Source: an uncultured bacterium
GTDB lineage: Bacteria > Chloroflexota > UBA5177 > JANWHV01
NCBI GenBank assembly: GCA_963729625.1
Contig: CAVSOU010000010.1
Location: 1,328,719-1,392,718, forward strand
Direction of reading: 5' to 3'
DNA length: 64,000 bases
The notes below the pieces were generated by a model. It had not been told where the DNA came from, did not search any database, and saw only the letters and a program-made list of their open reading frames with translations. Positions 768 to 38,289 of the stretch are shown piece after piece. The stretch's first letter is position 1. Every line of letters begins with the position of its first letter. A program made the translations under genes and the position numbers.

Positions 768-1802
768 CTAACCCTGAGCCCGCCAGACCGCGGCAAAGTG
801 TTTCGTCAGGTCCAGATACTGCGTGCCGTAGTGAATGCTGGGTTCGATGGTGTTGCCAAGATACCACTGGTTGAAGCTGCTGATTGTGATCCACGCGGGC
901 TTGCTGGCGATCGCTGCCTGCCAGCTCAAGGTGTATGTGGCTCCGTTGTCCCGCGGCACCACCAGCGGCTGGGGTTTCTGGCTATCGTTATAGCCCGGCA
1001 GCACGCCCGCGATCCAGAGTTTCTTCGTGCCGTGCGCCTGGTTGTACGCGTCGACCTTGGCGCGGAAGTTCTGGTAGAGCATGATCATGTCGTGCTGGGT
1101 GATCCCCCAGTAGCCGGCTCCGACGAGGTGCATGCTGTCGAAGGTGTCGTCCAGCACAGTCACCTCGATAGTGTCCAGCGACCAGAACGTCTTGCGCTGG
1201 GGATCGACCTGCTTGCGAATTGCTGCCCAGGTGGCCTGCGTGCGCCCGCCGCCAAAAGCGTCCCAGATGAAGAATACCGGCTTCCCCTGCCAGTGGAAGT
1301 AGGTGGATCGCGCGGTGTACGAAGCGATCGCGTAGTGGAGTTGCTGCTCGATGCGCGACTCGGTCTGCAGCAATGCGCCATCATCTTCCAGCTGAATCGC
1401 AAGCACGAACTGCGTGCCGGTCTTCTTGTTCCACGCGGCGACGCGGTCCAGCATCGTGGCGAAATTGCTGTCCTCGGAGCTCCCCTTCCCCCACCAGGAG
1501 ACGATGAAGCCCGTGACGCCGGCCCGCGATGCTTCGGCTATCTGGTCGTCAATGACCTTCGCATCATTCGAGCTGTACCTGGTGGCAGGCAAGTCGGACA
1601 TCGTACAGGAGCACCAGCTCGACCGCGTGTACCAGGGGTAGTAGAAGGCAAGAACCGGCCGTTCAACGCCCGCCGCCGCGGCGTGCGGGAGCGCGGCCCC
1701 CGGCAGGGTCCCAAGCGTGAGCAGCAGCGCAAGAATGGCGATCCACAGCCTGCCAGGCTGCAAGGTATACACGGTACGAGTGGACGCATCGGCGTGAGTC
1801 AT
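768..1802 (-). CDS. Secreted GH99/GH71-like TIM-barrel protein, catalytic motif degenerate
   Basis: Signal peptide; VLAFYYPWY, GFIVSWWG, PGYND, ITISSFNQWYLGNTIEP (family consensus SFNEWHEGTxIEP); GGAGG RBS before ATG 1802. Confidence 0.75.
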   Translation of the reverse strand: MTHADASTRTVYTLQPGRLWIAILALLLTLGTLPGAALPHAAAAGVERPVLAFYYPWYTRSSWCSCTMSDLPATRYSSNDAKVIDDQIAEASRAGVTGFIVSWWGKGSSEDSNFATMLDRVAAWNKKTGTQFVLAIQLEDDGALLQTESRIEQQLHYAIASYTARSTYFHWQGKPVFFIWDAFGGGRTQATWAAIRKQVDPQRKTFWSLDTIEVTVLDDTFDSMHLVGAGYWGITQHDMIMLYQNFRAKVDAYNQAHGTKKLWIAGVLPGYNDSQKPQPLVVPRDNGATYTLSWQAAIASKPAWITISSFNQWYLGNTIEPSIHYGTQYLDLTKHFAAVWRAQG

Positions 1803-2123
1803 CGGCTTTTCCCCTCCAATATCCGAGTGTATCGCCCAGGCGATGGTTGCAGTTTGACTGGTACCGTCGAGATCGTACGCTGTGCTTCCCGGGTTTCCAG
1901 ACCAATCCGGCAATCGTGCTCCGGGCCGCGGCGCGTATTGCCTGACTCGGATCCCCACGAGACCGCCGCTGCGCGGCAGGTTGGCGCAGGTTGCCGGAAT
2001 CTGCCTATCTTGACAGCAACGGCCTCGGCATGTAGGGTAAGATGTTGCCCTGGAACGGCGTGCACCGCCTCTCACATCCTCATGTGCAACGGGCGCACGT
2101 TCACTGCCAGTCTGGAGGCCGAC

Positions 2124-5100
2124 ATGATTCGCTGGTTCCATCTGTGCGCGGCGCTACTGCTGATAGCGGCGCCGATGTCCGCTCCGATCCGCGGCGCGCG
2201 TGCCGCAGGCGCCGCAGCGCGACCGTACCTCTACGGCTCTGTACGTTCGAAGCCATCGCCCCCGTCGCTGCGGTTGAGCGTCCAGCCGCCACAGGTCAAG
2301 GTCGGACGCGACGTGCTGCTCGCGATCCACGTATCCAACACAGCGGGAAAGGCGGTCTCAGGGGCGCTCGTGACGATCACCGGCGTCAACAGGCCGGCAG
2401 TCGGCAGTACGCGTGGCGGCATTGTTTCCCTGGTCGTGCATGCTGGAACAGTAGGAAGTGCGCTGGTGCAGGTGAGTCACGCCGGCTACACCCCGCTTAC
2501 CGCCCGCCTACCAATAGTATCGGGACCGCCTGCGACAGTGGCCGCGGTCAAGGCAGGGATCAGTGTGCTGGCGCCCAAAGCCAAGCCGGTGCTCGGAAGG
2601 GTCGGTACCGACCTTCTGGATCAGTACCATGCTTTGACCGGATCGGGTCAATACGCCTCCATTGCGCTGCGCGATGGATCGCTGGTCGACCTGAGCACCA
2701 ATACCGACGTCGCGATCAAAGACCCGCTGCATATGACGCTCACAGGCGGCGAGCTGTTTCTGGAAGTTGTCCATGGAGCGGCTAGCCATAACATACAAGT
2801 AGGCACGGCGGTGGCCTCCACAAAGGGCACAAGGCTTGACGTCCGCGTGGACCGCAAGACCAAAGCCATCGTGGTCACTGTGATCGAGGGAAAAGTTCAG
2901 GTAAGCAACCGGAAATCTACGGTGCTGATCGGAGCCGGACGCCAGACTGTTGTACCGCGCAACGGGCCACCGGGTCCGCCGAAACCGGCAAATCTGAGCG
3001 CTATCTTGTCCTGGATCAAGAAGCTTCCAAACACGACGGCTGCCACCGTTCCACCTGTTCTCAACGTACCGAACCCGCCACCCGCACGTGTGACGCTGCC
3101 GCCCACCCGCCTGCCGCCTACGATGACCGCGACAAATCCGGCACAGGCTACCTGGTCCGGAGTCGTCTCGGTCCCGGGCAATATCGACGTGCCCGCGGGC
3201 TCCAGCCTTACCATTCAACCTGGAACCGTGGTGCAAATCGCCGGCAACGCCGGGCTGAATGTGCAGGGCACGCTGCTGGCGCAGGGTACAGCTGCGAAAC
3301 CGATCATCTTCACCAGCGCTGCGGACCGGCCGAAGCCAGGCGACTGGCAGTACATTTCCCTCGACCAACCGAGTGCAAGTGGTAGCCGTCTGGATTACGT
3401 GCAGATGTTCTACGGCAGCTGGACCGGCGGAGACGACGGCATGCTCTCGGTCACCGGCGGCGCAGCTCCAATGATCAGCAACAGTGTCTTTGCCCAGGCG
3501 ACTCAAATCGGAGTGTGGTCGGACGACAACAGCCGCCCCACCATCAGCGACTGCGTTTTCGCGGGCGACGGCGCAGCCGCCATATCGGTGTCCGCCGAAG
3601 GCGCCGGTCTCATTAGCGGTACCCGACTCGGCCAGGGCCAGCGCGGAATCGAGATTCGTGACACGGCAGTCACGCACGACACCGTGTGGCACCGGCAGGA
3701 CGCGCCCATTGTGCTCGATGGCGCTACGGTTAATGCCGGTGCTGCTCTGACTATCGAGCCCGGCTCGGTTATTCGCATGGCGCAAGGCGCCGCATTGCAC
3801 GACCAGGGCACGCTTCTGGCACAGGGTACGGCCGCGGCGCCAATCATCGTAACGAGTAATGCCGCCAACCCGGCACCGGGTGACTGGCAGTATGTCGCCA
3901 TCGACGGGCCCGCCGCGAGCGGCAGCCGGATGGACTACGTGCAGATGTTCTATGGCAGCTGGAAAGGCAGCGACATCGGCATGCTGTCGGTCACCGGAGG
4001 CGCTACGCCGGGAATCGGCAACAGCGTGTTCGCGCAGGCCACGCGACACGGCGTGTGGGCCGACGATAGCAGCAGACCCACGCTCAGCAACTGCATATTT
4101 GCCGGCGACGCGTCGTCCGCGATCTTGGTGCCTGCCGACGACGGGACCCTGGTCACCGGCACGACGCTTGGACCCGGCCAGTCTGGGATCGAGTTGCGGG
4201 GCACGGCAATTACGCATGGAGGCACATGGCATCGTCAGAGCGCTCCGTACATCCTTGACGGCGGCGTTCTGGACGCCAACGTGAGCCTGACCGTCGAGCC
4301 CGGAACGCTGCTGGAAATGGCCAGCGGAGCTGCATTCCTCGTGCAGGGAACGCTCATGGCCCAGGGCACGACCGCAGCACCGATCATCGTAACGAGCAGT
4401 TCCGGCAGCCCGGCGCCGGGTAACTGGCAGTATTTCGCCATCGACGGACCGGCCGCGAGCGGCAGCCGGATGGACTACGTGCAGATGTTCTACGGCAGTT
4501 GGAACGGCCGCGACCACGGCATGCTGTCGATCACTGGAGGCGCTGCGCCGGAAATCGGCCACAGCGTGTTCGCGCAGGCCACCCGGAACGGCCTTTGGGC
4601 CGACGATACCAGCAGACCCACGCTCAGCAACTGCATATTTGCCGGCGACGCGTCGTCTGCAGTCTCGGTGCCGGCCGACGACGGCACCGCGATCGGCGGC
4701 ACGGCACTGACAGCAGGACAGCGTGGGATTGAGCTACGTGATACGGCCATCACTCATGATGGGACGTGGAGCGCGCAGGCGGCGCCGTTTATTCTGGACG
4801 GTGGCGTGCTGTCCACAGGGGTGACCGTGACAGTTGAGCCGGGCGTCTTCGTCCAGATGGCAGACGGAGCGGCATTCCGCATCCAGGGCAGCTTGATCGC
4901 GGTCGGTACGGCCGCGAACCCGATTGTGATCACGAGTGTGAATGCGACCCCGGCGCCCGGAATGTGGAAATACATCGCCATCGAAGGCGCGGGTGCAGAC
5001 GGCACGCGGCTCAACTATGTGCAGATATATTACGGAAGCCGGAACCGTGGCGACAACGGCATGCTCTCTATAACTGGAGGTGCCAGCCCGAGTATCCAGA

Positions 5101-5285
5101 ACAGCCTTTTCGCGCAGGCGAGTGCGGTCGGGATCTGGGCGGACGACTTGAGCAGGCCGGCAGTAGCCTTGTGCACCTTTCAGCAGCTTGGCGGACCCGC
5201 GATGTCCATTCCAAAAGCGGACGCCGCACGCGTGCATGACAATCGCGTCGCTGCCGGCGTTCAGCCCATCGAGATCAGGGGCTAG
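2124..5285 (+). CDS. Secreted FecR-domain protein with four ~180-aa parallel beta-helix-like repeats (paralog 1)
   Basis: GGAGG RBS, signal peptide MIRWFHLCAALLLIAA; Ig-like segment; FecR motifs DGSLVDL..GELFLEV..KGTRLDV..VIEGKVQV; Pro linker; repeats PIIFTS..PGDWQYI at 540-nt spacing. Confidence 0.8.
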   Translation: MIRWFHLCAALLLIAAPMSAPIRGARAAGAAARPYLYGSVRSKPSPPSLRLSVQPPQVKVGRDVLLAIHVSNTAGKAVSGALVTITGVNRPAVGSTRGGIVSLVVHAGTVGSALVQVSHAGYTPLTARLPIVSGPPATVAAVKAGISVLAPKAKPVLGRVGTDLLDQYHALTGSGQYASIALRDGSLVDLSTNTDVAIKDPLHMTLTGGELFLEVVHGAASHNIQVGTAVASTKGTRLDVRVDRKTKAIVVTVIEGKVQVSNRKSTVLIGAGRQTVVPRNGPPGPPKPANLSAILSWIKKLPNTTAATVPPVLNVPNPPPARVTLPPTRLPPTMTATNPAQATWSGVVSVPGNIDVPAGSSLTIQPGTVVQIAGNAGLNVQGTLLAQGTAAKPIIFTSAADRPKPGDWQYISLDQPSASGSRLDYVQMFYGSWTGGDDGMLSVTGGAAPMISNSVFAQATQIGVWSDDNSRPTISDCVFAGDGAAAISVSAEGAGLISGTRLGQGQRGIEIRDTAVTHDTVWHRQDAPIVLDGATVNAGAALTIEPGSVIRMAQGAALHDQGTLLAQGTAAAPIIVTSNAANPAPGDWQYVAIDGPAASGSRMDYVQMFYGSWKGSDIGMLSVTGGATPGIGNSVFAQATRHGVWADDSSRPTLSNCIFAGDASSAILVPADDGTLVTGTTLGPGQSGIELRGTAITHGGTWHRQSAPYILDGGVLDANVSLTVEPGTLLEMASGAAFLVQGTLMAQGTTAAPIIVTSSSGSPAPGNWQYFAIDGPAASGSRMDYVQMFYGSWNGRDHGMLSITGGAAPEIGHSVFAQATRNGLWADDTSRPTLSNCIFAGDASSAVSVPADDGTAIGGTALTAGQRGIELRDTAITHDGTWSAQAAPFILDGGVLSTGVTVTVEPGVFVQMADGAAFRIQGSLIAVGTAANPIVITSVNATPAPGMWKYIAIEGAGADGTRLNYVQIYYGSRNRGDNGMLSITGGASPSIQNSLFAQASAVGIWADDLSRPAVALCTFQQLGGPAMSIPKADAARVHDNRVAAGVQPIEIRG

Positions 5286-5566: not shown

Positions 5567-6322
5567 CTACTGAAGGATGCGGTCGACCAGGCGATTGAAC
5601 GTCGCGGTTACGGGCAGATCCGGATACTTCACGGTGAAAACGCCACCGCTGGCGAGGGTCATGATCTCATCCGAGTGCGGGAACACGGCAGCCACTTCAC
5701 TGCTATACGTTTCTTGCACGCGCATCCGAACCGACTCGGCATCGAGGCTGGGCGGACACTTGTTCACGACGAGCAACAGCAACGGGACGCTTAGCTTGCG
5801 CGCCACTTGCACGGTCACCCCGGTACCCTGATAGTCCTGCAAGTCTGGTCGCAGCACGATCAGCAGCACGTCGGAAATGGCGATGGACAGCAGTGTCTCC
5901 TCGTTGAGGCCAGGGTGCGTATCGATAATCAGCGTGTCCAGCTTCAAATCGCGTACCAGGGCGTTGAACCCGTCGTTTAGCAATCCAACGTCGTATCCCT
6001 CGCGCAAGATGCGAGCAATGTTGTTTGCCTGCACGCTGGCCGGCACCAGGAAGACGCGGCCGGGCAAATCCCCGGCTACCGTGTTCGTTACGTCATATGC
6101 GGCGTCCTTGATCTCGCACTTGCCCCACAGATAGTCGTTGAGGACGGGGCCGGCCGGATCCTGCGACATGCCGAACAGCACGTGGATACCGGGCGACATG
6201 ATATCTGTGTCAACGATGCCCACACGCTGTCCACGTACAGCCAACAATGCCGCCAGATTCGCCGACGTATTCGACTTCCCAGTGCCCCCGCGGTAGCTAT
6301 GAACCGAAATAATACGCGCCAT
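5567..6322 (-). CDS. MinD/ParA family ATPase
   Basis: Deviant Walker A SYRGGTGKS, VDTD, LIIDTHPG, VVNK. Confidence 0.9.
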   Translation of the reverse strand: MARIISVHSYRGGTGKSNTSANLAALLAVRGQRVGIVDTDIMSPGIHVLFGMSQDPAGPVLNDYLWGKCEIKDAAYDVTNTVAGDLPGRVFLVPASVQANNIARILREGYDVGLLNDGFNALVRDLKLDTLIIDTHPGLNEETLLSIAISDVLLIVLRPDLQDYQGTGVTVQVARKLSVPLLLLVVNKCPPSLDAESVRMRVQETYSSEVAAVFPHSDEIMTLASGGVFTVKYPDLPVTATFNRLVDRILQ

Positions 6323-6352: not shown

Positions 6353-6781
6353 CTATGCAGACGACTTTGGACGATGCACGACGACAATGTTCCGGTTTCC
6401 CTCCGCGGTCCGCTCGTAGCGGAGCTCATCGGTGCCGCGAAGGGCCAGGAACACCCCGAGACCACCGATCTCACGCTCTTCCAAGGGCCGGTCCAAGTCG
6501 TCGGGCGACTGTGCTTCATGCGGGTCGAAAGGCTCAGCCTTGTCCTCGAGGCAGAGGCGCAACTCCGCCTCGTCAAGTTCCGCCCACATAGCGATCGGCC
6601 CTTGTCGGTTCGCCCCGGCATAGCCGTGTACGACAATGTTCGTGGCAATCTCGTCAACCGCAAGGCGCAATTGATATGAAGCCTTCCTGTCCAAACCGGC
6701 ATCAGCCGCTGCGCGCAGCACGAACTGGCCGATATCCGCCAGCGATTCCAGGGTGCCAGGGACGGTCAGACGGTCCACCAT
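6353..6781 (-). CDS. RsbW/SpoIIAB-like anti-sigma factor Ser kinase (HATPase_c)
   Basis: LAVDEIATNIVVHGY, ED..PFDP, GGLGVFL. Confidence 0.92.
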   Translation of the reverse strand: MVDRLTVPGTLESLADIGQFVLRAAADAGLDRKASYQLRLAVDEIATNIVVHGYAGANRQGPIAMWAELDEAELRLCLEDKAEPFDPHEAQSPDDLDRPLEEREIGGLGVFLALRGTDELRYERTAEGNRNIVVVHRPKSSA

Positions 6782-6843: not shown

Positions 6844-7770
6844 TCAAGTGATTGCGAACGGTTCTTCCGTCGTCGACCGGCGCACTGCCAGCATCGTGAT
6901 GTCGTCGAACTGCACCGCGGTGCCGATATGCGCGGTTAGATGAGCATGGACGCTCGACACCAGCTCTTTCGCCGAAGCCGGCATCGGACTGTTGATGATC
7001 GATCGCAGTCTCGCTTCGGTGAAAAACGCGCCTGTGACATCTCGCGCCTCTGGCACACCATCGGTGAAGGCCAGCAACATGTCTCCAGGCGCAAATGTGA
7101 CCTGCTGGATCGCAAAATCCACGTCCGGGACCATGCCGACTGCGGGTCCCGTTGGCGTAAGGCGCTGCTTCACGCCCGACTCGTTGAACAACCAGGGCGG
7201 GCAATGGCCGCCATTGATGTACGTCAGCACGCCGGACCCAGGGTCTAGCACGCCGAAGAACATGGTGGCAAACATGCTTGTGTCGCCATGATTCGTGATA
7301 ATGTAGTTGTTGGTCAGCGTCATGGCGTTCTTCAGTGCGGTCGTGCCTGTGGAGGGGATGCCGCGGCGCCTGTCCGCGACCGGGCTACTGAGGAAGTCCG
7401 ACTCTTCGTCGCCCATCCAGCGCAGCGAATAGTGCTGCTGAGCAAAGGCGCGAATGAGGCTGCGGAAAAGTGCCATAAACAGCGCCGCCCCTACCCCCTT
7501 GTCGCACACGTCGGCAATCACCAGGCCGAGCCGCCGGCCCTGGTTGAGCGGAAACGCATCGTAGAAATCGCCCGCTACCTCGCGCGCCGGCTCGAACTCC
7601 GCGGCAAGCTCCCAGCCCGGCACCTGCGGCAGCGTCTTGGGCAGAAAGCTGAGCTGAATATCGCGCCCGATCTGTATGTCACGCTCGAGCTTGAGCAGCA
7701 CCTCCTCGCGCTTGGCGTTGGCTGTGCTCTGCTGCCCAGCATCATCCTCTATCATGCAGTGGTTCTCCAT
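6844..7770 (-). CDS. PP2C/SpoIIE (RsbU/IcfG-type) Ser phosphatase without a sensor domain
   Basis: AREVAGDFYD, IADVCDKG, FATMF, NGGH, FTDGVPEA, DDITML. Confidence 0.92.
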   Translation of the reverse strand: MENHCMIEDDAGQQSTANAKREEVLLKLERDIQIGRDIQLSFLPKTLPQVPGWELAAEFEPAREVAGDFYDAFPLNQGRRLGLVIADVCDKGVGAALFMALFRSLIRAFAQQHYSLRWMGDEESDFLSSPVADRRRGIPSTGTTALKNAMTLTNNYIITNHGDTSMFATMFFGVLDPGSGVLTYINGGHCPPWLFNESGVKQRLTPTGPAVGMVPDVDFAIQQVTFAPGDMLLAFTDGVPEARDVTGAFFTEARLRSIINSPMPASAKELVSSVHAHLTAHIGTAVQFDDITMLAVRRSTTEEPFAIT

Positions 7771-7794: not shown

Positions 7795-8109
7795 TCAGTA
7801 GGTGTCGACAATGGAGACACTGTGCTGGAAGCCTGTCATCTCCAGCGTGTCCCTCACGCCGTCTTGCAGGCCCACGAGCACGACTTCCACCGAGCCACCC
7901 ATCTTTTGCTTTGCAAAGATCAAGCCGCGCAAACCGGCGCTGGCCATGTATGACAGGCCGGACATAAAGATGACCAGCTTGCTCACGTGCGCGCCGGCCG
8001 CTTCCTCGACCTTCTCCCGAAACGCGGGAGCTACGCTAGCGTCAAGCTCGCCTTCCAAGGTGATCCGTGCTTCGTCCCCTTCGATCGTGAGCGTTGCATT
8101 GAAGGCCAT
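7795..8109 (-). CDS. STAS anti-sigma factor antagonist
   Basis: LEGELDA, YMASAGLR phospho-Ser motif, LEMTGF. Confidence 0.9.
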   Translation of the reverse strand: MAFNATLTIEGDEARITLEGELDASVAPAFREKVEEAAGAHVSKLVIFMSGLSYMASAGLRGLIFAKQKMGGSVEVVLVGLQDGVRDTLEMTGFQHSVSIVDTY

Positions 8110-12520: not shown

Positions 12521-12641
12521 CCAGGCGATCTCCTTGCAGCTGAAACACTTACCGCAGATACCGCATGCATCGACAAGCGTGGAGGTTGAGCTCGCAGTCA
12601 ACCCCACCGTCCACGAGCGGCAATAGATGGCTCAATTCTTC

Positions 12642-24718: not shown

Positions 24719-24990
24719 CTCGCCGCCGCTCCTTAGGACCGAACTTGCTACACTGCCCTCATCAGGGCATCCTCACCTTGACCGCATGAGGCTGTTCTTG
24801 ACGGGTTGAAGCGGGTTTAGGAAAGGAAAGGCACGATCGTCTTCTCGTGGTTGAGCTGCACGCAGGCGCGTCCCCGGCTCTTCCGTTGGCCCACACCTCC
24901 TGGCCTTGGTGCCCCGCGCTAGACCTGGAGAACGTCCCCTCGCTCCGTTGTCACGAGTCCGATGTATTGACCACGTATTTGGAGGACGGC

Positions 24991-29499: not shown

Positions 29500-29742
29500 C
29501 TGACTGCCCCAGGGATACTGCGGGGCCTGCTCATGCGGCCCCATACAGGATTATTCTAGCCGGTCCAACAGGAAGGTCGAAGATGTGTCCTGGCGATGCG
29601 TCGTCGTGATAGGCCAGGTTGACTTCTGGTACTGTCAATTGCCCTCGCGCCGCACTTGCTATCTCACTGGCTTCCGAACTGCTACCATTTATCTTAGGAC
29701 AGCCTCGCGCTGAGCAGAATCGTGAGAGGGTGGTTGCGAAGA

Positions 29743-30522: not shown

Positions 30523-30690
30523 GACACAGACCACGGGGGAACGCAGGGCGAGGCTTTGGTGAATCGCCTACCGCTCCCGAACGCTGTTGATCGCGCTCGT
30601 CTTGGCTGTCACAGGTCGTGTCCCAGGTAGGGGTACGCCCTGTCTTCTGGATGAGCCCTTAAGCATCTTGGTCCTATGGGAGTAAAGACG

Positions 30691-31038
30691 ATGGCACTCG
30701 ATACGCCAGGCTGGAAGTTCTTTGAGAAGCACCTGCAGTTCTTCATTGATAAGGACGTCGACGGCTTGCTTGCCAGCGACTATCACGACGACGCCATGTG
30801 CATATCCTACGACTTCGCAGTCAAGGGCAAGGAAGGCCTCAAGAGCCTGTTCACCGGTTACCTCGAGATGGTTGGCGACATCGCGCTCAGATCCACGGAT
30901 CATTGGCGCGAGACCGAAGACTCTATCCTCATCGAGGCCACAATGGACACCTCGCGCGCCGGAGAGCGGAAAGTCTACGACATCTTCATGATGAAGGACG
31001 GCAAGATCTCGCATCACTTCACCGGCGTACGAGCGTAG
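30691..31038 (+). CDS. NTF2/SnoaL-like protein
   Basis: DKDVDGLL..DY.DDA; KDGKISHHF. Confidence 0.8.
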   Translation: MALDTPGWKFFEKHLQFFIDKDVDGLLASDYHDDAMCISYDFAVKGKEGLKSLFTGYLEMVGDIALRSTDHWRETEDSILIEATMDTSRAGERKVYDIFMMKDGKISHHFTGVRA

Positions 31039-31132
31039 AAGCACTCGTATGTCGCACAGCAGCATTGGAGCCCGAGGAAGGCCCACCGGCTAGTAGTGCG
31101 CAGAACTGGTTTCTGGCGAGAAGGGGGAGACC

Positions 31133-34030
31133 TTGCGGATTTCGCTCACAGTCAACGGGCAGCCGTATCGAGCGGAGGTCGAGCCGAGACTGCCGCTTGT
31201 CGACTTGCTGCGTGACACGCTTGGTTTGACGGGCACGAAGAACGGTTGCGGCACGGGTGAGTGTGGTGCATGCACCGTTCTGCTCAACCACCGGTCGGTC
31301 AAGAGCTGCCTGTTGCTCGCCGCACAGGTGGACGGTGCCGAAATCACGACGATAGAGGGATTGGCCACGCGCGATCAGCTCAATCCAATCCAGCAGGCAT
31401 TCTGGGAGCAGTTCGCGGTTCAGGATGGATATGCTACGCCTGGTGCGGTGCTCGCGGCAACGGACCTGCTCGAACACAATCCGGCGCCGACCGAACGAGA
31501 GATCCGGGGCTGGCTCGATGGCTCGCTCGATCGAATTACCGGTTATCAGAACGTAGTGACGGCAATCAGTGCCGCCGCTGGAGTATTGCAAGGTACAGCA
31601 CCCTCCCCCGATGGAGCTGCCCCTTCTCCGATTGTAGGCGCGTCAATCAAGACCAAGGAAGCGCCGGCGATGCTGCGCGGTGAAACACGCTATGTTGCCG
31701 ACATTACACTGCCCGGCATGGTGCACGCTGCGATTCTTCGCAGTACGGTGCCACATGCTCGGCTCAAGCATGTCGACACGTCGGCTGCCAGTACGATGCC
31801 CGGCGTCGTGGGGGTGTATACCGGCGAGGACACGGCGGACATCATGCCGCTGCCTGTTATCTGGGTACCGCAGGATGTGGAAACCCACTTCCCGCCTCAC
31901 CCATCGGGCATGGTACCCGGCTCCCAGCTGGTTCTTGCGAGGGAGCGAGTACGATTCGTGGGTGATCCCATCGCGGTAGCGGTTGCGGAAACCCGACAGC
32001 AGGCCGTTGACGCTCTCGACAAGATCGTGGTCGATTATGAGCCATTGCCGTTCGTACTCGATGCCGAGGAAGCGCTCAAGGATGGCGCACCACAGCTGCA
32101 CGATACGGTGCCTAACAACCTTGTGTTCCGCGCTTCATACGGAGACAAGGCGCAGACGGAACAGGCTATCGCGGACGCCGAGGTCGTCGTGCGGCAGCGC
32201 ATCCGCAGCCAGCGAATGATCGCCAACACTATCGAGACGCGCGGGGCAATCGGCAGCTACGACCAGACGACCGGCGACTACACGCTGTGGACCAACGTGC
32301 AGCCGCTGTATCCGGTACGCCTGCTCATCTCCCTGTATGTGCTCGGTATCCCGTACAACAAGCTTCGCGTTATCGCCCCCGCAATCGGCGGCAGCAACGG
32401 CTCGAAGGGCTACCTGTTCGCCGACGGGCCGCTCGTGCTCTGGCTGTCGAAGAAGATCGGCAAACCGGTCAAGTGGATCGACACACGCGAGGGCATTGCC
32501 CAATCCACGCCACATGGTCGCGACCATGTTGACGATGTCACGCTTGCCGGTACGAAGGACGGCAGAATCACAGCGCTCCACTGCTCGGGCTACAGCAACA
32601 TCGGTGCGTATCCGGTGATAAACGCCCCCGGTCAGCCGCGCACGCTGATTGGGAAGAGCATAACAGGCGCCTATGCAATCGAGCGCCCCTATTACGAAGT
32701 CGCAGTGGTCATGACGAACACGGTGCAGGTCGGCGCCCTGCGCGGCTCCGGCAGGGCCGAGGCCATCTACATGATCGAGCGCATGGTCGACATCTACGCG
32801 CGCGAAATCGGCATGGACCCCGCCGAAGTCCGCCGCAAGAATATGGTGCAGCCGGATCAGCTTCCCTATGACAACAAGCTGGGCTGGCTTTATGACTCAG
32901 GCGACTACCCTGCGGCGTTGTCCAGGGCGCTGGAGGCGGTCGATTATGCCCACCGCGCGGAACGAAAGGCCGAAGCGCGCGGGCGTGGCAAGAGGCTGGG
33001 CGTGGGAATCGGCTCTTACGTCGCGGTCGCGGGTGTGGGCCCGTCGGCCAAGATGGGCAAGGAAGGGCTGGTAAGTGGTACGTGGGGTAGCGCTCATATC
33101 GGCGTTCAGCCAACCGGCGAGGTGGTTGTGACCACGGGCGCTCAACCCCATGGACAGGCCCACGAGACCACGCTGGCACAGATCGCCGGTGCCGAGCTCG
33201 GCGTCCCTGTCGACAGGATTCGGGTCCGTCACTCGGACACGGAAGGGCCACTCCTCTATGGCCAGGGAAGCTATGGCAGTCGAACGCTCTCCGTCGAGGG
33301 CGCAGCTGTCCACCTCGCGGCGCAGAAGATCAAGGACAAGGCTCGGCGACTCGCGGCCCATCTCTTCAAAGCAAATGTCGACGATATCATCTACGACGGG
33401 GACGCAGGCAAGGTCTTCCTGAAGTTCGCGCCAGACCAGGCGGTGATGCCGCTCCAACAGGTTGCGTTCGTGGCTTGGCTTGCCTGGGATCTGCCGGAAG
33501 GCATGGATCCCGTGCTGGAAGCACTCGCGTATTTCAATCCACCCGAGTTCAACTACCCATTCGGGACACACGTGGCCGAAGTTGAAGTCGACGAGGACAC
33601 CGGCGAGGTTAGCCTGGTGCGCTATGTCGCGGTCGACGACTTCGGCACCGTCGTGAACCCCGGCGTTGTGGATGGCCAGACGCACGGCAATATCGCGCTG
33701 GGCGTAGGGCAGGCACTATTCGAAGAGGCTCTGTACGGTGCAGATGGGCAGCTCGTGGCGGGCGACTTCTCCGCGTATGCCATTCCTCGAGCGTCGCAGC
33801 TGCCAAGCTTCGAGTTGCACCGCACGGTCACGCCTACGCCGAACAATCCGTTGGGGGCGAAAGGGGCAGGCGACGTCAGCAATCCGCCCGTCGCTCCCGC
33901 GGTTGTCAATGCCGTTTGCGATGCGCTGAGCGACCTGGGCATCCGACACATCGAAACGCCGCTGACTCCCGAAAAGGTTTGGCGGGCGATGCAGGCGGCT
34001 ACAGAACGTAGTGGGGCGGTGATTGCATGA
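31133..34030 (+). CDS. Xanthine dehydrogenase/CoxL-family molybdoprotein with fused [2Fe-2S] subunit (S+L fusion), atypical motifs
   Basis: GCGTGECGAC..SC; YVADI..PGM; ALRGSGR; GQAHET; GSYGSR; GAKGAGD; TTG start with GGGGAG RBS. Confidence 0.9.
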   Translation: MRISLTVNGQPYRAEVEPRLPLVDLLRDTLGLTGTKNGCGTGECGACTVLLNHRSVKSCLLLAAQVDGAEITTIEGLATRDQLNPIQQAFWEQFAVQDGYATPGAVLAATDLLEHNPAPTEREIRGWLDGSLDRITGYQNVVTAISAAAGVLQGTAPSPDGAAPSPIVGASIKTKEAPAMLRGETRYVADITLPGMVHAAILRSTVPHARLKHVDTSAASTMPGVVGVYTGEDTADIMPLPVIWVPQDVETHFPPHPSGMVPGSQLVLARERVRFVGDPIAVAVAETRQQAVDALDKIVVDYEPLPFVLDAEEALKDGAPQLHDTVPNNLVFRASYGDKAQTEQAIADAEVVVRQRIRSQRMIANTIETRGAIGSYDQTTGDYTLWTNVQPLYPVRLLISLYVLGIPYNKLRVIAPAIGGSNGSKGYLFADGPLVLWLSKKIGKPVKWIDTREGIAQSTPHGRDHVDDVTLAGTKDGRITALHCSGYSNIGAYPVINAPGQPRTLIGKSITGAYAIERPYYEVAVVMTNTVQVGALRGSGRAEAIYMIERMVDIYAREIGMDPAEVRRKNMVQPDQLPYDNKLGWLYDSGDYPAALSRALEAVDYAHRAERKAEARGRGKRLGVGIGSYVAVAGVGPSAKMGKEGLVSGTWGSAHIGVQPTGEVVVTTGAQPHGQAHETTLAQIAGAELGVPVDRIRVRHSDTEGPLLYGQGSYGSRTLSVEGAAVHLAAQKIKDKARRLAAHLFKANVDDIIYDGDAGKVFLKFAPDQAVMPLQQVAFVAWLAWDLPEGMDPVLEALAYFNPPEFNYPFGTHVAEVEVDEDTGEVSLVRYVAVDDFGTVVNPGVVDGQTHGNIALGVGQALFEEALYGADGQLVAGDFSAYAIPRASQLPSFELHRTVTPTPNNPLGAKGAGDVSNPPVAPAVVNAVCDALSDLGIRHIETPLTPEKVWRAMQAATERSGAVIA

Positions 34031-34899
34031 TTCCCGCGCAGTTTGAGTATGCGACGGCAACCAGCGTGAACGAAGCTGTGCGGTATCTTGAGGCGCATCC
34101 AGGCGCACGTGCGCTCGCTGGAGGCACGGGGCTGATCCCCGCCCTCTCACGCCGCCGCCTGACCGCAAGCGCCTTGGTCGATCTTCAACACATACCCGGA
34201 CTTGCGGCCATGACGCCGCTGGACACGGGTGGCGTGCGCATAGGGGCGCTTGCCACGCTCGCGGCGATTGTCGACAGGGAGGGTATGCGGGCAGCCTATC
34301 CGGTGTTGGCGGAAGCAATCGCTTCTGCCGCCGATCCACAGATTCGCAACCGCGCGACGCTCGGTGGCAGCCTTGTCCTCGACCACCGGGGAGGAGATGT
34401 CGCGGCTGCGCTTTTGGCTTTGGGCGCGTCTATAAACGTCACTGGGCCTGCCGGCGATCGGGTGGTCGCCATCGACAGGCTCCTCAGCGATCTCGGAGCT
34501 GCTCGTCTTGCCCCAGCCGAGATCGTGACGTCGATCGATCTTCCCGGTGACGCCTCGGGCACTGCGTATGAGAAGATCCGCAATCCTGCCAGCGGCTTTG
34601 CCATTTGCGGCATAGCTGCGTTGATCCGGCTTGGTGGGGAAGGCGCGGTGAGCCAGTGCCGCGTGGCGGTGACCGGAGCGACCGCTGCTGTGACCCGTCT
34701 GCTGTTGCTGGAGGAAAGCCTCACGGGACAAGCTGCTTCTCTGGCGACGATTGCCGGCAGCGCGCTTGCGGCGCAAGTGGCAACCCTCGCTTTCGCCGGC
34801 GACTGGCCGGCGTCTGCAGAGTTCCGAGCGCATTTGACTCGAGTACTGGCAGTGCGCGCCGTGCGACGCGCGGCAGAGCGCGCCGGATGGCGTGCGTGA
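34027..34899 (+). CDS. FAD-binding medium subunit (CoxM/XdhB-like)
   Basis: LAGGTGLIP, PQIRNRATLGG; ATGA overlap with upstream gene. Confidence 0.9.
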   Translation: MIPAQFEYATATSVNEAVRYLEAHPGARALAGGTGLIPALSRRRLTASALVDLQHIPGLAAMTPLDTGGVRIGALATLAAIVDREGMRAAYPVLAEAIASAADPQIRNRATLGGSLVLDHRGGDVAAALLALGASINVTGPAGDRVVAIDRLLSDLGAARLAPAEIVTSIDLPGDASGTAYEKIRNPASGFAICGIAALIRLGGEGAVSQCRVAVTGATAAVTRLLLLEESLTGQAASLATIAGSALAAQVATLAFAGDWPASAEFRAHLTRVLAVRAVRRAAERAGWRA

Positions 34900-35013: not shown

Positions 35014-35406
35014 GTGAAGAACGTACCTGACACAGCGCTCGGGCGCATGTATCGTGAGCACATCCAACATATCCTGGACAAGGACATCGAGTCACTGCTG
35101 GACCAGTATACCGATGATGCCCTGCTGATCAGCAGCTTCACCCGAAAGCCCCTCATCTACAAGGGTCGTGCGGAGATCCGCGAACATATGCAGGGTATTC
35201 TTGGCATCCAGGGCCTGGAAACCGACATCGCATTTTGGGCGGAGACAGAGAGTCCGCAGACTCTCATGATTGTGGAGGAGATCACCATGCAAACTGCTGA
35301 CGGGGAAGCACGCATGCGCTTCGCCGACAGCTGGGTGCTGCGTGAAGGGCGTATAGCCATACACTTTGCTGGGATGACCCAGTATCCCGACGGCTCGGTG
35401 GCCTAG
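35014..35406 (+). CDS. NTF2/SnoaL-like protein (paralog of 30691..31038)
   Basis: DKDIESLLDQYTDDA; REGRIAIHF. Confidence 0.78.
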   Translation: MKNVPDTALGRMYREHIQHILDKDIESLLDQYTDDALLISSFTRKPLIYKGRAEIREHMQGILGIQGLETDIAFWAETESPQTLMIVEEITMQTADGEARMRFADSWVLREGRIAIHFAGMTQYPDGSVA

Positions 35407-35411: not shown

Positions 35412-36272
35412 ATGTCTGCCCTGCGCAACAAGTATCTGGCAATGCGCTATTTCCAGGAGATCATGGTCGGGGCCAACATCGCGACCATGTATGAGCTGGT
35501 GGCGCCAGAGTGTGTCCTGACTCTGCCCACATACCCCCATACCTACAGTGGCCCGGATGGCTGCAGAGACCTCGTGAGCATGCTGCACGGTTGTTTCCCA
35601 GATTACTTCATCCATCTCAATGACATGGTGGCATCCGGTGACACTGTGGTGACGCGCTGGCGATCTGGTGGCACGCACCTCGGCGCGACGTTCACATCAG
35701 TTGGCGGTAGTATTCCGGCCAGTGGGCGCTCGTTTGAAATTGACGGCATGACGTGGCTTCGCATGGCCGGTGGCCAGATCGTGGAAGCAATCGGCCATGA
35801 GGATACGGCCGGCATGTTCACGCAGCTTGGCGTGATCCCCAGTGCGTCGAGCGCCACAACGCCGGAGCAGAACCTTGCTACGGCGCACCGCTACTTCGAT
35901 GAAGTCATGAATCAGGGCAAGCTGCGTGTGATCGAAGAGATCATGGCGCCCGGCATCCAGTTCATTATCCCAACTCAGCCGGAGCCTATCACGGGATACG
36001 GCAATATGGGCGGGTTTGTCGGCTATCTGCGCAACGCCTTCCCGGACATCCATTTTGCTGTTGAGCGTGAGATTGCGGTGGATAACAAAGTCGCCGTGCG
36101 ATGGTCCATCACAGGCACGCATGCCGGCGAATTCCTGGGCAAGCCGCCTACCGGGAACGCGATCGAGGACTTCGGCATCGATATCTTTACGTTTGAGGAC
36201 GGTAAGATCCGGGCCGTGCACGTGAGCGAGAATGACTTCGGACTGTTTCAGCAACTCGAACCCAGAAAGTGA
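35412..36272 (+). CDS. Tandem two-domain SnoaL-like ester cyclase
   Basis: Two copies of FPD...RW..GTH.G...P.G. Confidence 0.88.
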   Translation: MSALRNKYLAMRYFQEIMVGANIATMYELVAPECVLTLPTYPHTYSGPDGCRDLVSMLHGCFPDYFIHLNDMVASGDTVVTRWRSGGTHLGATFTSVGGSIPASGRSFEIDGMTWLRMAGGQIVEAIGHEDTAGMFTQLGVIPSASSATTPEQNLATAHRYFDEVMNQGKLRVIEEIMAPGIQFIIPTQPEPITGYGNMGGFVGYLRNAFPDIHFAVEREIAVDNKVAVRWSITGTHAGEFLGKPPTGNAIEDFGIDIFTFEDGKIRAVHVSENDFGLFQQLEPRK

Positions 36273-36303
36273 TTCGCGGTTGGCGCCTGCTGAAAAGACG
36301 CTG

Positions 36304-37833
36304 GTGAGTGCCCGACACGCCTATGACTACGTTGTGGTCGGCGCCGGCGCGAGCGGCTGTGTGCTGGCCAATCGCCTGAGTGCTGACCCGGCGACGCAAG
36401 TCCTGCTCCTAGAAGCCGGTGGGACCGACCACGAGCCCCGCATCCACAATCTGGACGGCTTTGTGCAGCTCTGGGGCACCGATGTCGCCTGGGCTTTCCT
36501 CACTGAGAAGCAAGCTGGCCTCAATGGGCGGCAAATCCTGATCAACCAGGGCAAGGTGTTTGGCGGCGGCAGCTCGATCCACGCCATGATGTACGTGCGC
36601 GGCAACCGCCTCAACTTCGATCAATGGAGCGCGCTTGGCGCGGATGGGTGGAGCTACGAGGAAGTACTGCCGTATTTTAGGAAATCTGAGAACTACGAGG
36701 GCGGCGCTTCAGCATATCGCGGCGTAGATGGCCCGCTCGATGTCCGACCGTGCCCCGACCCTGTCGCCCGCTCGCTCGCGTTTCAGGAGGCGGCCGTGGA
36801 GCTGGGTTACGACGGCCCGGATTGGGATTACAACGGTGCCCGCCAGGACGACGGCGTGGGACCGATCCAATTCAATATCGGCAACGATGGCCGTCGCGTC
36901 AGCGCGGCCACGGCGTTTCTCACGCCGGCACTCGGTCGCCCTAACCTCACTGTGCACACGCATGCCGAAGCTACCCGCGTGCTTTTCGCGGGCATGCACG
37001 CGGTGGGTGTCGAGTATCGCCAGGACGGCCAGGACCAGCAGGCCCGGGTCGCGCGTGAGGTAGTCCTCAGCGCCGGCACATTCATGTCGCCCAGGATTCT
37101 GATGCATTCCGGAATCGGACCGGCGCCGCACCTGGAGGCTCACGGCATCCCCGTGCTCGTCGACCTGCCCGGTGTTGGTCAGAACTTGCACGATCACCTG
37201 CAGATCTCGGTGGTCTACAAGTCGCGAGTACCCCTCGCCGATCCCACGCTGCTGGCCGGGAACGTCCTGTTCACGCGCTCCCGCAAGGGCACGCAGACCG
37301 CGCCGCCCGATCTGCAGATCATGTACAGCCCCGGCGTCCCGTCGGCCCTATCGTCCGCGATCCCAGGGCCTCGCCCAGCCAGCATTTTCATTCCCATTCT
37401 GCTGCAACCCCGTAGCCGGGGAGACGTCCGCCTGCGATCTGCCGACCCGACCGATGCGCCGGTCATCGACCCACAGTACCTGCAGCGCGAATGCGACCTC
37501 GAGGCCCTGCTGCAGTCGGTCCGTATAGTACGCGATCTGGCCGGTACCAGGGCGTTTTCCGATCTCAATGGCGGCGAGATAGCGCCGGGCCCGAATGCCG
37601 ACCTCAAGGACTACGTCCGCCGCAGCGCGACGACCATGTGGCATCCTGTCGGCACGTGCAGGATGGGCCGCGATGCCCTGGCGGTGGTCGATCCGCAATT
37701 GCGGGTCGTTGGCGTCTCCGGGCTCCGTGTTGCCGATGCGTCGGTCATGCCGGCAATTCCCAGCGGCAATACATTCGCGGTATGCGTGATGATTGGCGAG
37801 AAACTGATAGGCCTGTTACATGGCACTGATTGA
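36304..37833 (+). CDS. GMC family FAD oxidoreductase
   Basis: YDYVVVGAGASG, GKVFGGGSSI, VGQNLHDH, WHPVGTCRMG, ADAS, SGNT; start uncertain. Confidence 0.93.
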   Translation: MSARHAYDYVVVGAGASGCVLANRLSADPATQVLLLEAGGTDHEPRIHNLDGFVQLWGTDVAWAFLTEKQAGLNGRQILINQGKVFGGGSSIHAMMYVRGNRLNFDQWSALGADGWSYEEVLPYFRKSENYEGGASAYRGVDGPLDVRPCPDPVARSLAFQEAAVELGYDGPDWDYNGARQDDGVGPIQFNIGNDGRRVSAATAFLTPALGRPNLTVHTHAEATRVLFAGMHAVGVEYRQDGQDQQARVAREVVLSAGTFMSPRILMHSGIGPAPHLEAHGIPVLVDLPGVGQNLHDHLQISVVYKSRVPLADPTLLAGNVLFTRSRKGTQTAPPDLQIMYSPGVPSALSSAIPGPRPASIFIPILLQPRSRGDVRLRSADPTDAPVIDPQYLQRECDLEALLQSVRIVRDLAGTRAFSDLNGGEIAPGPNADLKDYVRRSATTMWHPVGTCRMGRDALAVVDPQLRVVGVSGLRVADASVMPAIPSGNTFAVCVMIGEKLIGLLHGTD

Positions 37834-37866
37834 TCGACACTCGTGGCTCAGGGAGGTAGAGGACAA

Positions 37867-38289
37867 GTGGTTCATACGGCGTTTGCCCACGTGGGGTTGA
37901 CCTGCAAAGATCCTGTCGCGGTCGAGCGGTTCTATACTGAGCACTTTGGCTTCCGGCGAGCGCGCGCGATCCCGCTGGGGGGCACTGAACAGATCGTCTA
38001 CATCAAGTCGGGCGATATGTACCTGGAGCTGTTCCAGGCGAAAGCGCCGGCCCCGATCGCGCCGCCCGAGCAGGATGGTTATGGCTGGCCCGGCGTGCGC
38101 CACCTGGCGTTTGTAGTAGACGATGTCGATGCCAAGCTCGCCGAGCTTGGCAATGCCGCAAAGGTCACGCTTGGACCGCTGGACTTCAGTGACTTCATTC
38201 CAGGATGGCGAACCGCCTGGGTTGCCGATCCGGAGGGCAACATTGTCGAGATAAGCCAGGGGTATCAGGACGATCCGGGCCTGATCTAG
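37867..38289 (+). CDS. VOC/glyoxalase family protein
   Basis: AHVGL, LELF, RHLAF.VDD, DPEGNIVE. Confidence 0.9.
   Translation: MVHTAFAHVGLTCKDPVAVERFYTEHFGFRRARAIPLGGTEQIVYIKSGDMYLELFQAKAPAPIAPPEQDGYGWPGVRHLAFVVDDVDAKLAELGNAAKVTLGPLDFSDFIPGWRTAWVADPEGNIVEISQGYQDDPGLI

Follow-up and report, generated by a model that had tools for sequence, protein, structure and literature searches.

Why a phosphorylation switch should be interleaved gene by gene with two sugar enzymes has so far been without explanation for the icfG cluster of Synechocystis, and the genome of an uncultured Chloroflexota bacterium raises the question again in a larger setting. The window, by which we mean the whole 64,000-nucleotide stretch that was analysed (G000:C10:1328719-1392718, G000 being the source genome), carries an island at 768..38289, numbered from the window start, in which an icfG-type core is accompanied by sensors and a large set of predicted carbonyl-handling enzymes; the G+C content is ~62% and the composition shows no break at the island. 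We read the region from 5.6 to ~43 kb as a rearranged and locally enlarged copy of a widespread, laterally mobile cluster built in three layers, a reading that, together with the mechanism proposed below, we hold tentatively and at a little under an even chance. The first layer would consist of an AGE-superfamily sugar 2-epimerase/isomerase and a GlgX2-type GH13 enzyme, with a STAS gene after each of their genes. The second would be a switch of an RsbW-type kinase and a PP2C phosphatase, joined here by a ParA-like ATPase and by separate cyclic nucleoside monophosphate (cNMP) and HAMP sensors with a common tail, and the third a carbonyl-handling block of three DJ-1 proteins with thiamine diphosphate (ThDP), GMC, VOC and NTF2 proteins, to which an aldolase and a molybdenum (Mo) enzyme have been added here.

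The icfG core and its two STAS types

Pfam and NCBIfam scans of the long open reading frames (ORFs), from which the gene map was made, confirmed the core first noted, which comprises seven genes on the minus strand: an AGE-like protein of 606 aa (10703-12523; Pfam GlcNAc_2-epim, 39.5 bits), a STAS anti-sigma antagonist of the Slr1856 type between AGE and GlgX (STAS1; 10285-10626; Pfam STAS, 81 bits, and TIGR00377), a GlgX-type GH13 enzyme orthologous to Synechocystis GlgX2/Slr1857 (8152-10278), a second STAS protein of the Slr1859 type after GlgX (STAS2; 7795-8109; Pfam STAS), a short PP2C/SpoIIE phosphatase of the IcfG type that lacks a sensor domain (6844-7770; Pfam SpoIIE, 156 bits), an RsbW/SpoIIAB-type serine kinase of the Slr1861 type (6353-6781; Pfam HATPase_c_2, 78 bits) and a ParA/MinD-like P-loop ATPase (5567-6322; Pfam ParA/AAA_31/CbiA, with all NCBIfam matches below cut-off). 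The start of the AGE-like protein was set at Met29 of a 634-aa ORF because every relative starts at an MNxxxFxFSD motif, and with refined starts the gaps from AGE through ParA are 6-76 bp. This spacing makes the single operon of the original prediction plausible but does not demonstrate it. A scan from 5 to 21 kb returned 5 promoter-like sites against 4.2 expected, 4 of the 5 in the divergent region at 13.38-13.87 kb, and 6 terminator-like sites against 12 expected, and is too weak for transcripts to be defined from it; no Rfam family reached its gathering score in the window.

Reports that link the icfG cluster to carbon regulation in Synechocystis go back to the 1990s, the primary papers cited in PMC12329169 being those of Beuf (1994), Shi et al. 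(1999) and Gonzalez et al. (2001). The cluster order of AGE-like, STAS, GlgX-type, STAS, PP2C and RsbW-type kinase genes on one strand is found unchanged in the window. Compared with the Synechocystis salina locus (L040), where the order is identical and a DJ-1 gene lies upstream of the core, the window proteins are 65% (AGE), 46% (STAS1), 69% (GlgX), 52% (STAS2), 47% (PP2C) and 40% (RsbW) identical, and both STAS types are present in each. By gene order and sequence identity the window core is the icfG cluster, as originally predicted, with the ParA-like ATPase added after it. The cluster of strain PCC 6803 spans slr1852-slr1862 and its core has been in print since 1999 (PMC12329169). Unlike the Synechocystis cluster, the window adds the ParA-like ATPase, a small conserved protein (h158), an MFS transporter, a HAMP sensor and a GNAT acetyltransferase, its block is a large DJ-1/ThDP/NTF2/GMC/VOC set rather than the small CMD/ABM/DJ-1 set of most cyanobacteria, a molybdenum enzyme has been inserted, and the core is inverted relative to the block.

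At least 596 relatives of the AGE-like protein were found in contigs sampled at one genome per species, and the best 80 of these define the loci compared here, which represent 14 named phyla (labels assigned from record titles) and were searched with the window proteins by tblastn (E < 1e-6, at least half of the query covered). The core genes recur as STAS2 in 77 loci, GlgX in 73, STAS1 in 56, the kinase in 52, PP2C in 42 and ParA in 7. Forty-six loci are well covered, with at least 7 kb on both sides of AGE, while the other 34 have less than 7 kb on one side. In a maximum-likelihood tree of 129 STAS sequences two clades separate with 100/100 support, the STAS1 clade (57 rows, including the window STAS1) and the STAS2 clade (72 rows), and the latter takes in every one of the 14 STAS domains found as C-terminal fusions to AGE, in L016 and 13 cyanobacterial loci. 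STAS2 is present in 46 of the 46 well-covered loci, an arrangement far from chance; 29 of these have the full set, and 12 retain STAS2 without STAS1, kinase or phosphatase, whereas STAS1 co-varies with the kinase. Because of this constant presence, the 12 loci without a switch and the 14 fusions that are all of the STAS2 type, STAS2 is tied to the enzymes and STAS1 to the kinase.

The expected components of a partner switch can be recognized in the predicted proteins: a GHKL kinase, a PPM phosphatase and STAS proteins with a conserved phospho-acceptor serine (Ser57, invariant in 28 STAS2 sequences, and an SSAGLR motif in STAS1). RsbV-RsbW-RsbU/sigma-B and SpoIIAA-SpoIIAB-SpoIIE/sigma-F are the partner switches of Bacillus subtilis, which share with the present cluster the STAS antagonist with its phosphorylatable serine and the same kinase and phosphatase families. 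Here, however, the cluster has no sigma gene, the genes of two STAS types alternate with those of enzymes, and the STAS2 type persists without a kinase in 12 loci and is enzyme-fused in 14. In Synechocystis, according to the 2025 study (PMC12329169, New Phytol 2025), the kinase phosphorylates STAS proteins, IcfG dephosphorylates Slr1856 (STAS1 type) but not Slr1859 (STAS2 type), Slr1861 is both kinase and anti-SigC factor, and regulation of the icfG operon follows carbon status. The division between an enzyme-linked STAS2 and a kinase-linked STAS1 described above agrees with this selectivity of IcfG.

Whereas the Synechocystis kinase is reported to hold SigC, no Sigma70 domain was found in the scanned ORFs of the window, and the nearest of 15 sigma-70 family genes lies ~317 kb away. 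The switch could nonetheless act only through such a distant sigma factor, in which case the island would be one of co-regulated stress genes and its block would provide general aldehyde and dicarbonyl detoxification called upon in the same physiological state, be it carbon excess, dormancy or stress, consuming no product of the AGE-like or GlgX-type enzyme. We consider this rather unlikely while giving it appreciable weight. DJ-1/PfpI and VOC proteins are classical glyoxalase-type stress proteins, which counts for it, as does the recurrence of stress-type neighbours (Usp in the window, LtrA and TMEM175 in other loci) and the wide variation of block composition between phyla. The anti-SigC function and the response to carbon status just cited point the same way, and the slr1852-1862 operon is salt-repressed (PMC8670252). 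Sigma control alone, however, would hardly explain why STAS2 stays with AGE and GlgX where kinase and phosphatase are missing, or why it is fused to AGE, and block genes that are 60-80% identical across phyla in the same adjacency to AGE are held together more tightly than a loose regulon would be.

The AGE-like and GlgX-type enzymes

Relatives of the AGE-like protein among the 80 loci are 58-70% identical to it and come from phyla that include Cyanobacteriota, Chloroflexota, Bacillota, Bacteroidota, Verrucomicrobiota, Spirochaetota, Omnitrophota and Deinococcota. An AlphaFold model of the protein (pLDDT 84.4, pTM 0.90) predicts an N-terminal beta domain (~9-95), an (alpha/alpha)6 barrel (110-532) and a C-terminal beta domain (537-604). 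In Foldseek the best matches were the Runella glucose 2-epimerase (8H1K-N), cellobiose 2-epimerases, mannose isomerase, AGE and YihS (E ~1e-13 to 1e-8; TM of the best folds 0.72-0.80 on target), and the top 28 matches listed (ranks 1-33) were all AGE-superfamily enzymes. Profile-to-PDB alignments place R161, H375 of a GH motif and H516 of a YH motif (Y515-H516) on the family arginine and the catalytic histidine pair; all three are invariant in 30 AGE-like sequences. By predicted fold and catalytic residues the protein is a sugar 2-epimerase/isomerase. While the barrel is common to it and to the characterized enzymes (8H1K from Runella slithyformis, the cellobiose 2-epimerases 3WKF and 5ZIG, the mannose isomerase 5X32 and YihS), it is only 13-19% identical to them, and it carries ~100 extra N-terminal and ~70 extra C-terminal residues, both as beta domains; the protein itself is conserved at 58-70% across phyla. 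A further difference lies in the W-x-Q-x-E helix, where the family glutamate aligns with an invariant glutamine, Q448, adjoined by an invariant E447.

The window GlgX scores above the equivalog cut-off of TIGR02100 (711.9 against 640.9 bits). The motifs of GH13 regions I-IV are intact in it and in 65-67 of the 67 full-length GlgX proteins of the clusters, and a second GlgX paralogue of 47% identity is encoded elsewhere in the genome. The original prediction had the system mobilize glycogen. This has been weakened, since a preprint (10.1101/2022.11.21.517384) reports that the Synechocystis orthologue GlgX2 (Slr1857) was without debranching activity in a GlgP-coupled in vitro assay and that its deletion was without phenotype, the function of GlgX2 being left open there. 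Because the orthologue is inactive and its deletion silent, the substrate of the cluster GlgX may not be glycogen.

As a separate observation, a second alpha-glucan set lies downstream in the window, with a GH77 MalQ (48725-50605) and an archaeal-type GDE (56327-58345). Beside these a dual-specificity phosphatase (55576-56112) and a 486-aa protein with PPDK_N and PEP-utilizer domains (58606-60066) might together work as glucan phosphatase and dikinase, in the manner of SEX4/laforin and GWD.

A carbonyl-enzyme block that travels with the core

Between 20.1 and 38.3 kb we counted 19 enzyme-type genes, close to the twenty or so first noted. The plus-strand genes from 13.9 to 39.5 kb are closely spaced, and only MocA and XdhC lie on the other strand there. 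After h158 (17128-17604; no Pfam match, a winged helix being possible by eye only), the MFS transporter (17633-18961; MFS_1) and the GNAT acetyltransferase (20154-20726; Acetyltransf_7/1), the block opens with DJ1a, a DJ-1 superfamily protein of the ThiJ_like type (20816-21679; Pfam ThiJ_like, 76.9 bits), followed by a benzoylformate-decarboxylase-like ThDP enzyme (21730-23433; TPP_enzyme N/M/C) whose best PDB match is BFDC (6.6e-59), and DJ1b, of the PfpI/YhbO type (23503-24072; DJ-1_PfpI). The nucleophile cysteine is kept in DJ1a (aligned to 1u9c) and the Cys-His elbow in DJ1b (aligned to PfpI 8r3n). Four NTF2/SnoaL genes (24272-24718, 24847-25482 with a weak match, 25760-26173 and 26192-26611; SnoaL/SnoaL_2) precede an HpcH/HpaI-type aldolase (26900-27691), the minus-strand MocA cytidylyltransferase (27785-28396) and XdhC (28393-29544), the last three assigned by Pfam and NCBIfam. 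There follow DJ1c, a third DJ-1 type (29722-30522; Pfam), an NTF2 protein (30676-31038; Pfam), a xanthine-oxidase-family Mo enzyme with fused 2Fe-2S and molybdenum-cofactor (MoCo) subunit (31133-34030; Fer2, Fer2_2, Ald_Xan_dh_C, MoCoBD_1/2) and its flavin adenine dinucleotide (FAD) subunit (34027-34899; FAD_binding_5), the NTF2/SnoaL proteins Sno3 (35014-35406; Pfam) and Sno4, which is double-domain (35412-36272; Pfam), a GMC flavin oxidoreductase (36232-37833; GMC_oxred_N/C) with alcohol oxidase and choline oxidase as best PDB matches, and a VOC/glyoxalase-fold protein (37843-38289; Glyoxalase). The membrane protein h384 (38361-39515; no Pfam match) stands at the array end; its ESM Atlas neighbours carry Ion_trans_2 in 10-24% of members, a lead only towards a possible K+ channel relative. 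Two competing frames were rejected as shadows of NTF2 genes, 24249-24809(+) of the gene at 24272-24718(+) and 30568-31086(-) of that at 30676-31038(+). The frame at 24.3 kb was settled by 83% identity to the same-genus genome G001 and 36-48% identity in 11 loci, and NTF2 30676-31038 is 43% identical to the genes that immediately precede the Mo enzyme in L003 and L066.

With three DJ-1 proteins, a benzoylformate-decarboxylase-like ThDP enzyme, GMC, VOC, at least seven NTF2/SnoaL domains, an HpcH aldolase and a Mo enzyme of the aldehyde-oxidoreductase type, the block as annotated does carbonyl/aldehyde chemistry and not the sugar tailoring of the original prediction, for which neither glycosyltransferases nor NDP-sugar enzymes were found; the supposed sugar nucleotidyltransferase ('NTP transferase') is by NCBIfam a MocA-type molybdenum-cofactor cytidylyltransferase next to XdhC. 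A biosynthetic route along the lines first envisaged, in which a glucan sugar would become a small signal, protectant or antibiotic-like molecule exported by the MFS protein, now appears very improbable. Small proteins typical of natural-product tailoring (SnoaL, ABM, EthD, AtaL, SRPBCC type) do recur in the neighbourhoods, and MFS and GNAT are conserved in this lineage. Against this, Pfam and NCBIfam scans found no polyketide or nonribosomal peptide synthase, terpene synthase, glycosyltransferase or sugar nucleotidyltransferase, DJ-1 and VOC proteins, which are the best conserved members of the block, in known cases remove rather than build reactive carbonyls, and the cluster is found in gut anaerobes as well as soil phototrophs.

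The block co-occurs with the core in other genomes. Counting genes of at least 45% identity within 10 kb of AGE as orthologue-grade, at least one DJ-1, ThDP, GMC, NTF2/SnoaL or VOC gene accompanies the core in 37 of the 80 loci and at least two do so in 33, the carriers spanning 11 of the 14 named phyla. Since coverage on one side of AGE falls short of 7 kb in 34 loci, these counts are a lower bound. At that level of identity DJ1b is found in 30 loci (up to 80% identical), VOC in 18 (usually directly upstream of AGE), DJ1c in 11 (mostly anaerobes), DJ1a in 10, ThDP in 9 and GMC in 8, and Sno3 is 64-80% identical in several phyla and 88-91% in G001. The tblastn search as a whole gave DJ1b in 53 loci, ThDP in 20, DJ1a and DJ1c in 20 each (the two cross-match), VOC in 19, Sno3 in 13, GMC in 12, MFS in 3 and the Mo enzyme in 2, and found GH99, the FecR proteins, the cNMP protein, h158, GNAT, HpcH, MocA, XdhC, h384 and the CHASE2 cyclase in none of the 80. 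Clustering of all ORFs in the loci brought out further recurrent neighbours, namely CMD, ABM, EthD/VOC/AtaL/SnoaL fusions, 4-OT tautomerase, cupin, SDR, a second ThDP type and a GH63-like protein. Over 46 loci the distance matrices of AGE and GlgX correlate with r=0.60 and those of AGE and DJ1b with r=0.46, values reached by 0 of 2000 permutations, in a measure that relatedness inflates.

Closer relatives tell the same story at finer scale. Among 31 genomes AGE occurs only in G000 and G001, the latter with two copies of 87% identity, and orthologues of DJ1b (85-88%) and ThDP (80-81%) occur in exactly these two; the 29 genomes that lack AGE span 58-100% completeness. G001 carries two full copies of the cluster (C16:284592-307000 and C16:908688-926000, L082-L087), ~620 kb apart and 70-91% identical to the window proteins. 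Copy 1 is one co-directional array of ~23 kb from AGE through h384, made up of AGE, STAS1, GlgX, STAS2, PP2C, kinase, ParA, h158, MFS, HAMP, GNAT, DJ1a, ThDP, DJ1b, NTF2, Sno3, more SnoaL, GMC, VOC and h384. In copy 2 the array is preceded by a CHASE2 cyclase, FecR and cNMP protein and ends with a FecR/beta-helix gene. Copies of h158 (57-61% identical) directly follow ParA in both arrays, GNAT (69-71%) is in both, MFS (77%) is in copy 1, and h384 (75%) closes array 1. From these arrays it follows that the window carries this array too, its core inverted and a FecR gene lying in between. MFS genes also hold a window-like position in L002 and L075, with GNAT in the same set in L002, a Caldilineaceae metagenome-assembled genome. 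There a short PP2C is followed at 16315-20214 by an AdoMet-decarboxylase-like gene, MFS, GNAT and a tail-bearing HAMP protein, with ParA opposite, an accessory set that is that of the window with a possible polyamine flavour.

Neither G001 copy contains the segment from 26.9 to 34.9 kb (HpcH, MocA, XdhC, DJ1c, NTF2 and Mo enzyme). An orthologue of the Mo enzyme is lacking in G001 altogether, and paralogues of it occur in 23 of the 31 relatives in a tally that includes the unpublished genome G018. Since HpcH, MocA and XdhC are in none of the 80 loci and in neither G001 array, they are a local insertion, whereas NTF2, Mo enzyme and FAD subunit lie inside the block in two Chloroflexota loci (L003 and L066), which makes that part an occasional accessory. 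The Mo enzyme is complete for its family, with two 2Fe-2S and MoCo domains, FAD subunit, XdhC and MocA. Its assignment as carbon monoxide dehydrogenase (604.8 bits against a cut-off of 991) or xanthine dehydrogenase was rejected, all equivalog scores being below cut-off. A Mo glyceraldehyde oxidoreductase and a 2-keto-3-deoxy(phospho)gluconate (KD(P)G) aldolase belong to the non-phosphorylative Entner-Doudoroff route of the Sulfolobales. The window Mo subunits match the glyceraldehyde dehydrogenase models NF041018/19/20, and an HpcH-type 2-keto-3-deoxy-acid aldolase lies 3.4 kb away. The three scores, however, are below cut-off (561.6, 182.1 and 197.5 bits against 790, 350 and 290), the aldolase is of another family than KDG aldolase, and the segment is absent from the same-genus arrays.

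These enzymes also bear on whether the island is catabolic, with the MFS protein importing an oligosaccharide, glycoside or aromatic/heterocycle, the GlgX2 and AGE-like enzymes trimming its sugar part, and GMC, Mo enzyme, ThDP decarboxylase, aldolase and NTF2 proteins degrading the rest, an account to which we attach little credence. It would accommodate the reported inactivity of GlgX2 on glycogen, the resemblance of the benzoylformate-decarboxylase-like ThDP, alcohol-oxidase-like GMC, xanthine-oxidase-family and HpcH enzymes to peripheral catabolic pathways, and the recurrence of MFS next to the core in L002, L075 and G001. Yet MFS is found in only 3 of the 80 loci, the cluster has no conserved substrate-binding protein, porin or catabolic transcription factor, the same-genus arrays lack the aldolase as well as the Mo enzyme with its maturation genes, and internal alpha-glucan genes abound, with MalQ and GDE in the window and the second GlgX elsewhere in the genome.

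Phylogeny and distribution fit a lateral spread of the unit as a whole: the AGE tree mixes phyla, with Chloroflexota needing at least 4 changes and the window on its own long branch, and the occurrence is patchy. Neither of the outcomes that would have refuted the original prediction was obtained: the block is found elsewhere with the core, and no characterized pathway was found to match the set, since all scores of the block enzymes against NCBIfam equivalogs are below cut-off and no description was found in the literature. Co-inheritance is upheld for the core and the carbonyl block and not for GH99, the FecR/beta-helix genes, HpcH, MocA and XdhC, which are not conserved parts.

Sensors and the proposed working of the switch

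Two predicted sensors lie close to the core, a cNMP-binding protein (12755-13564, minus strand; Pfam cNMP_binding, 71.5 bits) and a HAMP membrane sensor (19068-20132, plus strand; HAMP and a partial SiaA-like match). They had been described as output-less, and Pfam and NCBIfam scans indeed found no output domain in either, but both end in the same stretch of ~65 residues (tails at 12863-12925 and 19995-20057). A hidden Markov model of this tail detects three copies genome-wide, two in the island and the third in a 92% paralogue of the cNMP protein. Across the clusters the tail ends HAMP, Cache, cNMP or CHASE2 proteins in 8 loci, 7 of them with a ParA-like gene: HAMP/Cache proteins in L075, L002 and G001, the cNMP protein in G001, and, next to PP2C in L034, L035 and L036, CHASE2 proteins without a Pfam output domain. 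A match in an FHA protein of L003 (E 2.8e-5) was dropped as probable coiled-coil noise, and a word-index search of 5.8 billion proteins returned only 12 carriers, REC-only and CHASE4-HAMP proteins included, too few to gauge the spread of the tail. We read the tail as a putative docking element that would join interchangeable sensors to the switch, with the ParA-like ATPase or PP2C as partner. The third copy (G000:C15:7876-12049) stands beside two FecR paralogues and reflects either an incomplete duplication of the island's sensor end or an assembly/bin duplicate, the genome contamination being 5.24%.

A short PP2C with separate sensors is found in the window, G001, L002 and L010, and PP2C is fused to sensors elsewhere, as cNMP-GAF-PP2C (L066), REC-PP2C (L003), GAF-PP2C and dCache-HAMP-PP2C. 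ParA-like orthologues lie beside the core in L002, L003, L008, L010, L034, L035, L066, L075 and both G001 copies; the Walker A motif of the window ATPase is RGGTGKS, the sequence SYRGGTGKS having R instead of the signature K of the deviant Walker A motif. HAMP sensor orthologues are present in both G001 arrays, L075 and L002, and a cNMP orthologue lies upstream of AGE in G001 copy 2. A cNMP input recurs in the L066 fusion, a cNMP protein (L003) and a cNMP-histidine kinase (L045). At the right of the island a CHASE2-adenylate cyclase (39687-41600, minus strand; CHASE2 and Guanylate_cyc) and FecR3 (41681-43054, minus strand; FecR) have counterparts of 83% and 73% identity that immediately precede the cNMP gene and AGE in G001 copy 2, and the pair is a probable cyclic AMP (cAMP) input, in an association at genus level only. 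The sensing of an outside cue is plausible in so far as CHASE2 cyclase, FecR and cNMP protein also flank one of the two G001 copies. A second cyclase in the window combines adenylate cyclase, NB-ARC/AAA and TPR domains in 817 aa (50862-53315).

The remaining flanking genes appear to be local, lineage-specific neighbours. A GH99-like gene (768-2141, minus strand) forms the left end, and FecR1 (~2142-5285, plus strand; FecR and beta-helix domains) is part of a 1495-aa plus-strand ORF (798-5285) that overlaps it and has homologues only from ~2142 onwards; this left end (768-5285) has no counterpart in the 80 loci or G001. FecR2 (13891-17112, plus strand; FecR, Beta_helix, NosD) has an N-terminus that is signal-peptide-like by eye and is probably secreted, as had been supposed of the FecR proteins. 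Two of the three FecR-domain proteins carry beta-helix repeats, a family with ~10 paralogues scattered over the genome and none within 30 kb of G001 copy 1. Elsewhere in the window a TMEM175-type K+ channel gene (54712-55359) belongs to a family found directly upstream of AGE in 6 of the 80 loci (e.g. L046 8634-9308), two overlapping minus ORFs at 46798-48340, each half an MFS transporter, may be a frameshift-split gene or an assembly error, and the gene at 62515-63978 joins a fatty-acid desaturase domain to a Rieske 2Fe-2S domain at the C-terminus. A defence-system assignment was rejected, PADLOC on ParA, h384, h158, cNMP and HAMP proteins giving only generic P-loop and cNMP-domain matches.

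In the mechanism that we propose, cAMP from the CHASE2 cyclase and a membrane signal through the HAMP sensor would set the balance between PP2C and kinase. The phosphorylation state of STAS1 would govern the kinase. Like Slr1861 with SigC, the kinase may in addition hold a distant sigma factor, and STAS2 would act directly on the AGE-like enzyme and perhaps on GlgX. Once switched on, the pair would turn an alpha-glucan or oligosaccharide into a keto or epimerized reducing-end sugar, and the block would convert the reactive carbonyl products of that sugar.

Several observations weigh against this account. The step from the product of the pair to the carbonyl block is drawn from gene neighbourhood alone, and since the Synechocystis kinase is reported to act through SigC, the switch could be explained without any direct control of the enzymes. 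Because the family glutamate position of the AGE-like protein holds an invariant glutamine (Q448), its chemistry may differ from that of known epimerases, and the behaviour of GlgX2 in Synechocystis suggests that glycogen may not be the substrate. In 43 of the 80 loci, many of them short contigs, no orthologue-grade block gene lies within 10 kb, and most cyanobacterial loci have only a distant DJ-1 (~30% identity), CMD and ABM instead of the block. A search of sequencing runs found no RNA run that holds the stretch; five DNA-type metagenome runs contain parts of it, with a best share of 0.30.

A more specific chemistry, which we offer as a long shot, is an enzymatic 'peeling' of alpha-1,4-glucans from the reducing end, neither hydrolytic nor phosphorolytic and switched by STAS2. 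The GlgX2-type enzyme would supply free chain ends and the AGE-like enzyme would isomerize the reducing-end glucose to a ketose, upon which the 4-O-linked chain, now beta to a carbonyl, would be eliminated; the resulting 4-deoxy-dicarbonyl sugar would be rearranged or cleaved by DJ-1/VOC, ThDP (diketone-cleaving), NTF2 and tautomerase enzymes. Binding of STAS2 to the isomerase would switch the route under the control of cAMP, PP2C and kinase, with sensors docking through the shared tail to the ParA-like ATPase or the phosphatase. Such a route would be chemically coherent, and it has analogies in glycoside cleavage by oxidation and elimination, as reported for an O-glycoside beta-eliminase acting after C3 oxidation (PMC10628242) and for the levoglucosan pathway (PMC7676230). 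The likeness lies in the concept of a carbonyl beside the glycosidic bond, an elimination and the handling of an enone or dicarbonyl, with a flavin oxidoreductase present here too; it is an analogy only, no search for homologues of those eliminases having been made.

As to novelty, the core has long been in print and its kinase was shown in Synechocystis to be an anti-SigC factor (PMC12329169). A literature search, supplements aside, found no paper describing the extended cluster, the link between AGE and STAS or the tail. New here are that the STAS domains fused to AGE are of the type encoded after GlgX, that the AGE-like protein folds as a 2-epimerase and that the output-less sensors share a tail. 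The window version of the cluster lets core, sensors and large carbonyl-enzyme block be read as one unit, and with the related loci it yields testable statements: STAS2 is the type that goes with the AGE-like enzyme, this enzyme is by fold and catalytic residues a sugar 2-epimerase/isomerase, cAMP recurs as an input, and the sensors share a docking-like tail. If the block does act on the product of the enzyme pair, the cluster would represent an undescribed glucan-derived carbonyl route, found from gut anaerobes to soil cyanobacteria.

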